Source of the DNA: Escherichia coli
GTDB taxonomy: Bacteria; Pseudomonadota; Gammaproteobacteria; Enterobacterales; Enterobacteriaceae
DNA: 64,000 bases
Reading direction: 5' to 3' (one strand)
Assembly (NCBI RefSeq): GCF_003019035.1
Contig: NZ_CP027447.1
The translations under genes were made by a program, and so were the position numbers. This document shows, piece after piece, positions 31,649 to 32,422 of the stretch. The stretch's first letter is position 1, and every line of letters begins with the position of its first letter. The notes below the pieces were generated by a model, which was given only the letters and a program-made list of their open reading frames with translations, did no database searches and was not told the DNA's origin.

Positions 31649-32422
31649 TCAAAAATTAGGTGAGTAACGGACCGGGGACATAGCTCCTTTTTTTCTTAAT
31701 TCATCTGGTATTTTTTTTCCAAGATAAAGATTTGCTATTTCAGGTGGGGCTTCTCGGCCTTCAAAACCATAGCGAGAACTTTGTGTTGCCTCAAAGTCAG
31801 GATCCTCGTCCCAGTATTTCATCGTAGGGAAATTTTCACGTGTTGATTTGAGCCATTTATCAGCAATGAAAACCCCCCGAACGATTCCCCTTACAGTAGC
31901 AAGAATAACTTCTGCTTGGCTGGCGCGAGAGACATTAATGCGCCAGCTAAATCGAACCGCATCATAAAGCTCTGAATCCTTTGCACTTCTGTTAACGGAA
32001 ATCATTAATGCTTTATGATGAAATGTTATGGTTTCGGGTTGATATGTTGCTATCAACTCTTTGACATGCGCGGCGCCGAATTCATTGCTGCCAGCACCAT
32101 TCATGATATTCGTTAACCCAGGGTAGGCATCAATAAGTGCAGCTTCAACTTCGTACGCCGTCTTTTCATCAGTCATTCCGTGTCGATGGATGACATGGAT
32201 AACTTCAAGTCCTGCTAACCTTATTTCTCTAATTTGCTTTAGCTTGTTGCTCAGTAACTCGTCATCATCAGTCGCTGCCACTTCACCGCGCATATGGGCA
32301 AATACGCGGTTACCTTTGCCTTTCCCTACATAGAAGGTGCTTCCGTCCCTCGGATCAATCAATCGGTATACATACCAGCCAAGGTGTTCAATTACTCCAG
32401 AAGGAAACTCAGTAATATCCAT
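31649..32422 (-). CDS. GIY-YIG-like nuclease domain protein with uncharacterised C-terminal domain
   Basis: ~258 aa from the ATG at 32422 (ORF track starts at a TTG at 32473); N-terminal pattern WYVYRL-x9[14 protein letters not shown] then conserved Glu/Asn region; no HNH/Cys cluster, so not McrA. Confidence 0.55.

Follow-up and report, generated by a model that had tools for sequence, protein, structure and literature searches.

A CMoRE (PD-T4-3) gene, predicted to encode a modification-dependent GIY-YIG nuclease, at the right end of an e14-like prophage of Escherichia coli

Results and discussion

The gene at positions 31649-32422 (minus strand) of the analysed stretch, hereafter the window (64,000 nucleotides of the Escherichia coli contig NZ_CP027447.1, assembly GCF_003019035.1), is almost certainly a functional and intact copy of CMoRE, also described as PD-T4-3, with the activity of this particular allele predicted from its sequence. 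The enzyme is already known, its family, mechanism and structure having been published between 2022 and 2026, and the gene is common in E. coli. The original prediction recognised a GIY-YIG-like nuclease and left its type open. The first part was right, as supported by a match to Pfam PF22945 (E 3.6e-14) and by the crystal structures available for a protein with 98.4% identity; the second is outdated, as the protein is PD-T4-3 (PMC9519451), characterised and crystallised as CMoRE (PMC12923530).

Identity of the gene product

The predicted open reading frame is real, with exact coordinates and strand. It runs from an ATG at 32422 to a stop codon at 31649-31651 (774 nt, 257 amino acids plus stop) and its DNA is identical to the RefSeq gene for WP_000355484.1, the product of which is named 'LEM-3-like GIY-YIG domain-containing protein'. 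Initiation at an in-frame TTG at 32473 would lengthen the protein by 17 residues. The ATG at 32422, from which the protein begins with MDITEF, is the start used in RefSeq, in the crystallised constructs and in the PADLOC profile alignment, where protein residue 1 falls on profile position 1. The PADLOC PD-T4-3 profile (PDLC04031) aligned to residues 1-256 over profile positions 1-255 of 256 (E 2.4e-140), and matches were also obtained to phrog_5356 (E 2e-143) and to PDB entry 9U75 (E 3.7e-172), levels that chance could not produce; NCBIfam offered no model for the protein. Identical residues amount to 253 of 257 (98.4%) in the comparison with E. coli O157:H7 CMoRE (PDB 9U75/9U8D) and to 219 of 257 (85.2%) with APEC O1 CMoRE (PDB 9U7U/9U7Z). 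The four substitutions, given from the window to the O157:H7 residue, are T51A, E55D, Q169K and N197H. Because these 4 differences in 257 residues affect no reported functional residue, and because the gene retains the conserved upstream sequence that accompanies it elsewhere, we infer that this copy acts like CMoRE.

Domains and functional residues

The pattern YVY-x11-YVGKG-x3-R-x3-H is present exactly as originally quoted, at residues 17-43, and constitutes the GIYxY-YIG catalytic motif (Y17, Y19, Y31, R39 and H43; 32294-32374, minus strand), with its three tyrosines Y17, Y19 and Y31 found in GWYVY...FYVG. The later Glu/Asn of the GIY-YIG pattern could likewise be located, as E91/E93 and N105/N108. 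R39 and H43 share the R-x3-H spacing and E93 and N108 are spaced by +15; judged by sequence, these pairs would correspond to R27/H31 and E75/N90 of I-TevI, which we take to have the same R-x3-H and +15 spacings. Among sequence libraries, Pfam assigned residues 28-110 only, to LEM-3_GIY-YIG (PF22945), and the generic Pfam GIY-YIG model PF01541 was not significant (E 0.47). A single-sequence AlphaFold2 model, built without an alignment, had a mean pLDDT of 39.9 and was unusable. The GIY-YIG fold is proven by the crystal structures of the 98.4% identical protein, from which it would carry over to the window protein by homology. The statement that the protein is not McrA was also borne out, with zero cysteines and no HNH match in Pfam, PADLOC or NCBIfam.

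In the domain layout of CMoRE (PMC12923530), the match to PF22945 lies within the segment at 32063-32422 (minus strand), corresponding to the N-terminal nuclease domain. In CMoRE this domain has a GIY-YIG fold with UvrC as its nearest neighbour, carries an extra tyrosine, giving the 'GIYxY-YIG' arrangement of Y17, Y19 and Y31, and loses both defence and nuclease activity when these tyrosines are mutated (PMC12923530). A 15-residue acidic loop lies over the active site, and replacement of its four acidic residues by alanine leads to cutting of ordinary DNA and to toxicity (PMC12923530). The corresponding acidic run of this autoinhibitory 'lid' in the window protein is D52 D53 D54 E55 (32258-32269, minus strand; loop function from PMC12923530), which reads DDDE here and in the APEC O1 protein and DDDD in the O157:H7 protein. 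T51 and E55 are two substituted positions that lie in or beside the autoinhibitory loop, a point that could speak for altered behaviour; as a counterpoint, the DDDE run is the same as that of the active APEC O1 enzyme.

CMoRE is a tetramer, and the V92S/L96S mutant loses oligomerisation as well as defence (PMC12923530); both interface residues, V92 and L96, are present in the window protein. [quoted passage not shown] In the window protein the C-terminal ~135 amino acids contain no Pfam domain, in agreement with the original prediction of an unassigned second domain. The modification-sensing domain is placed at approximately residues 125-257, including Y127 (31652-32050, minus strand; PMC12923530 and alignment), and the gapless alignment of residues 125-257 to 9U75 shows Q169K and N197H as the sole differences, with Y127 kept. 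Taken together, all the residues named in PMC12923530 are conserved, namely Y17, Y19, Y31, R80, V92, L96 and Y127.

Predicted activity against phages with modified DNA

A functional selection carried out in E. coli yielded PD-T4-3, a defence system consisting of a single GIY-YIG gene (Vassallo 2022, PMC9519451). The genes from O157:H7, APEC O1 and Klebsiella reduced plating of phages T2, T4 and T6 by about five orders of magnitude (Liu 2026, PMC12923530), and CMoRE defends without abortive infection (PMC12923530). Purified CMoRE binds and cleaves DNA with 5hmC or glucosyl-5hmC and neither binds nor cleaves DNA with C or 5mC; restriction is seen for T4(hmC) and not for T4(C) (PMC12923530). Two modified sites are needed for cleavage, which occurs at CN11/N9G and leaves 2-nt 3' overhangs (PMC12923530). 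Two independent studies are in accord with these findings. A Capnocytophaga homologue, PD-T4-3Capno, which is 48% identical to E. coli PD-T4-3, is likewise modification-dependent and needs its active site: it degrades T4 DNA and not unmodified T4-GT7 DNA, active-site mutants are dead, and at high enzyme concentration it also cuts DNA of phage Mu, which carries mom-modified adenine (PMC12366544). In the clinical strain NILS69, deletion of the native gene rendered the bacterium sensitive to two phages, LF73_P1 and LF73_P3, and the cloned gene protected K-12 against four Tevenvirinae phages (bioRxiv 10.1101/2024.12.20.629700).

By analogy, the C-terminal domain of the window protein would bind DNA containing 5-hydroxymethylcytosine or glucosyl-5hmC, and a dimer within the tetramer would read two modified cytosines approximately 21 bp apart. 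The N-terminal GIYxY-YIG domain would then cut between both modified cytosines (CN11/N9G, 2-nt 3' overhangs, with Mg2+ or Mn2+), with the acidic loop over the active site excluding ordinary and 5mC DNA, so that host DNA would be spared. The DNA of T2, T4 and T6 would in this way be destroyed early in infection and the cell would survive. These steps come from the literature on near-identical proteins (98.4% and 85.2%), and for the window allele we infer them. Among the options offered in the original prediction, a modification-dependent nuclease was the correct one.

Enzymes of the PvuRts1I/AbaSI family combine a different nuclease fold with an SRA-like sensor, and their cleavage between two modified cytosines, at about N11-12/N9-10, is of very similar geometry. 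They share their substrates, 5hmC and glucosyl-5hmC, with CMoRE (PMC12923530). UvrC is the nearest structural neighbour of the CMoRE nuclease domain (PMC12923530) and LEM-3_GIY-YIG its best Pfam family; what sets CMoRE apart from UvrC and LEM-3 is a further tyrosine (GIYxY), an acidic insertion of 15 residues separating helices 2 and 3, fusion to a modification sensor, and a role in defence instead of repair.

Relation to the prophage methylase and to homing enzymes

The prophage encodes a methylase of 350 amino acids (8549-9601, plus strand) that matches PF01555 N6_N4_Mtase (E 5.4e-42) and PADLOC MTase_II (E 1.6e-152), gives partial matches to NCBIfam PRK11524 and CcrM-like models and resembles adenine-specific enzymes. 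It is located in the late-regulatory region, between the Q antiterminator and the holin/lysis genes, 22 kb from CMoRE. The functional link between the nuclease and this phage methyltransferase, which had been put forward as speculative, found no support, in view of the distance and of the occurrence of the module elsewhere with other neighbours. CMoRE is a single-gene type IV enzyme that ignores unmodified and 5mC DNA (PMC12923530). Type IV enzymes do not depend on a protective methylase, and 5hmC and glucosyl-5hmC are not products of the N6/N4 methylase class. That CMoRE is the nuclease partner of the prophage methylase in a classical restriction-modification pair, as their presence on one prophage might suggest, is thus of negligible probability: besides the position of the PF01555 methylase and the unrelated neighbours of the module in other places, CMoRE neither binds nor cuts unmodified DNA (PMC12923530). 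A type II restriction-modification system with a GIY-YIG nuclease of the Eco29kI type was rejected, there being no adjacent cognate methyltransferase; the flanking genes are pinE and the retron RT. A related prophage (L002) has an extra phage N-6-adenine methyltransferase in its early region, which the window apparently lacks.

The suggestion of a homing-type enzyme did not hold up either, as the one hit in its favour, to phrog_314 'homing endonuclease', is marginal (E 0.0021) and the context lends it no support. A GIY-YIG homing endonuclease would spread itself via a specific target site, and different prophages indeed carry this gene as a discrete module of ~1 kb. However, no intron or intein context is present, Pfam detected no NUMOD or IENR1-type DNA-binding domain, and the near-identical enzyme cuts 5hmC DNA without strict sequence specificity, so that published biochemistry effectively refutes this reading (PMC12923530) and we assign it next to no probability. 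As to an I-TevI type homing endonuclease in particular, a sequence-specific DNA-binding tail was not found and the published cleavage is directed by modification.

Upstream region and expression

The 190 bp preceding the ATG (32423-32612, minus strand), the presumed native promoter region, travel with the gene in four genomic contexts and are ~93% identical to the loci of O157:H7, S1-IND-01-A and Ecol_AZ146. Beyond approximately 190 bp upstream the window diverges from the O157:H7 locus, because the retron lies there; the O157:H7 locus has instead a tRNA-Ser 3' half and an AraC-family gene. Our scan for consensus promoters and terminators yielded none on the minus strand around the CMoRE gene. 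By eye, a weak candidate promoter below the scan threshold can be discerned, consisting of TTGTGA (32483-32478) and TAATAT (32460-32455) separated by 17 nt, with 8 of 12 matches.

A stable hairpin at 31591-31629 lies between the convergent pinE and CMoRE genes, with fold energies of -23.6 kcal/mol (z -5.6) on the plus strand and -17.4 kcal/mol (z -3.4) on the minus strand. It starts with the final nucleotide of the pinE stop codon and ends 19 nt beyond the CMoRE stop, and it is also preserved alongside the gene elsewhere. It has no canonical T-run and is probably a bidirectional terminator.

The O157:H7 CMoRE drives defence from its native promoter, and the APEC O1 CMoRE provides weak defence from its own (PMC12923530). 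Given the latter, the level of CMoRE expression in the window locus would be uncertain by analogy, and a silent or weakened copy, giving little defence through poor native expression or through the four substitutions, is the only live alternative to a functional CMoRE. In line with it, one T-even-like phage evades the native NILS69 system and not the overexpressed one (bioRxiv 10.1101/2024.12.20.629700), the scan found no consensus promoter, and the retron replaces the sequence beyond -190. We nevertheless consider a weakened copy very unlikely, as the reading frame is intact, every reported functional residue is conserved, the proximal 190 bp upstream are conserved in the four contexts and several unrelated isolates keep the gene with an identical DNA sequence. 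A functional CMoRE accordingly remains our reading of the gene.

Prophage context and distribution

Positions 1 to ~35344 of the window represent an e14-like prophage. Its gene order is ymfK/ymfT/ymfL immunity genes, RusA, Q antiterminator, N6/N4 methylase and lysis genes, followed by a P27-type terminase, an HK97-type head, a Mu-like contractile tail, ymfQ, invertible tail fibres and pinE. CMoRE is found at the right end, just after pinE and beside the retron Ec67 gene. Positions 35300-35344 (TTCGTAATGCGAAGGTCGTAGGTTCGACTCCTATTATCGGCACCA) are the 45-bp 3' part of a tRNA-Thr gene, from the anticodon loop to CCA; ARAGORN detected no complete tRNA in the window, and the same stretch is annotated in other genomes as tRNA-Thr adjoining an integrase. 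This fragment therefore marks attR, which places CMoRE and the retron inside the prophage as terminal cargo. The prophage occupies a thrW-type site adjoining a truncated LysR-family gene and paoD, and the chromosomal paoDCBA and ecp genes lie beyond its end. On this chromosomal side, past the prophage end, we also noted a match to the small RNA family IS009 (Rfam RF02111; 36562-36763, plus strand, 191.7 bits, full length).

Within the prophage, an overlapping pair of minus-strand open reading frames (6469-7017, 182 amino acids, and 7004-7930, 308 amino acids) lies where morons are classically found, in a strikingly AT-rich stretch (GC 0.31-0.38) flanked by the Q antiterminator and the DNA methylase. 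PADLOC and NCBIfam gave no match for either, and both are hypothetical in RefSeq; the larger matches only phrog_2802, of unknown function (E 1.7e-184).

The retron, of the Ec67 or type I-C kind, adjoins CMoRE in divergent orientation (32982-33114 and 33134-34969, both plus strand). Its RT-Toprim fusion of 611 amino acids matched NCBIfam NF038237 with 742 bits (cut-off 450) and PADLOC RT-Toprim_I-C (E 5e-222). Just 5' of the RT lies a candidate msr-msd RNA, closed by a perfect 12-nt inverted repeat (GGTTTATGGGCA/TGCCCATAAACC) and with a fold energy of -43.3 kcal/mol (z -2.9); the search of this retron RNA against Rfam gave no family match at the gathering or E-value threshold.

CMoRE was found in 837 of 5426 complete E. 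coli genomes (~15%) at an identity of at least 95%. The same pinE-CMoRE junction occurs in 576 genomes, and the full pinE-CMoRE-retron arrangement in only 8 of the 5426; strains with exactly this locus include EC7 and 2018-05-5CC. The neighbours of the gene vary by locus, as befits a single-gene system: the retron in the window, an AraC-family gene in O157:H7, and a Dcm-type methylase with a type II endonuclease in Ecol_AZ146. The O157:H7 CMoRE agrees with the window protein in the GIYxY-YIG motif, the acidic lid, the interface residues and Y127, and its gene likewise comes after pinE, in a prophage located in the same part of the chromosome. In Ecol_AZ146 (L006, 5059-8915) the CMoRE module belongs to a lambdoid prophage at ssrA, in which it comes after the gene for tail-fibre assembly. 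There it adjoins a DNA cytosine (Dcm-type) methyltransferase and a type II restriction endonuclease, which together make a small defence cluster; a Dcm-type neighbour fits the indifference of CMoRE to 5mC.

An imperfect direct repeat of ~40 bp brackets the CMoRE module in the window (31599-31623 and 32619-32643), each copy forming a hairpin with the minus-strand core CAGCACGWTCTTGCATACRACGTGC. In O157:H7 (L003, about 4640-4720) only one copy is kept. The exact hairpin core, searched with up to 3 mismatches, was absent from L006 and L007, although the downstream hairpin aligns in both in a diverged form; bracketing by two copies is therefore not a general feature. Upstream, homology among the four contexts stops at GGTCTC(A/G)AAAACCG, a tRNA-Ser(CGA)-like anticodon arm, which in O157:H7 and S1-IND-01-A is followed by a complete tRNA 3' half comprising a long variable arm, the T arm GGGGGTTCAAATCCCCC, the acceptor stem and CCA. 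This tRNA-Ser-like stretch may be the att remnant of an older element. The ~1-kb CMoRE module (about 31591-32620) could be imagined as a discrete, exchangeable cassette, with the tRNA-Ser remnant marking a site-specific route between prophage right ends, or else the rare CMoRE-retron Ec67 pairing as functionally cooperative, ideas that we regard as improbable.

In the e14 prophage of K-12, the slot directly after pinE at the prophage right end is occupied by mcrA, the product of which is named '5-methylcytosine-specific endonuclease McrA' in RefSeq. Comparison of e14 (L005, 2583-4077) with window positions 31037-32422 showed that homology ends 2 nt past the pinE stop codon, with mcrA following there and CMoRE here. 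McrA is a single-gene type IV enzyme and an HNH nuclease. It has no sequence relationship to the window protein, and mcrA is transcribed in the same direction as pinE, whereas CMoRE is convergent with it. Thus, two unrelated modification-dependent nucleases share one slot.

The defence-system literature is in this case ahead of the RefSeq and Pfam labels, which still read 'LEM-3-like GIY-YIG domain-containing protein'. For the biology of E. coli, the locus presents prophage right ends as exchangeable defence slots, filled by McrA in e14 and by CMoRE with its neighbouring retron in the prophage described here.
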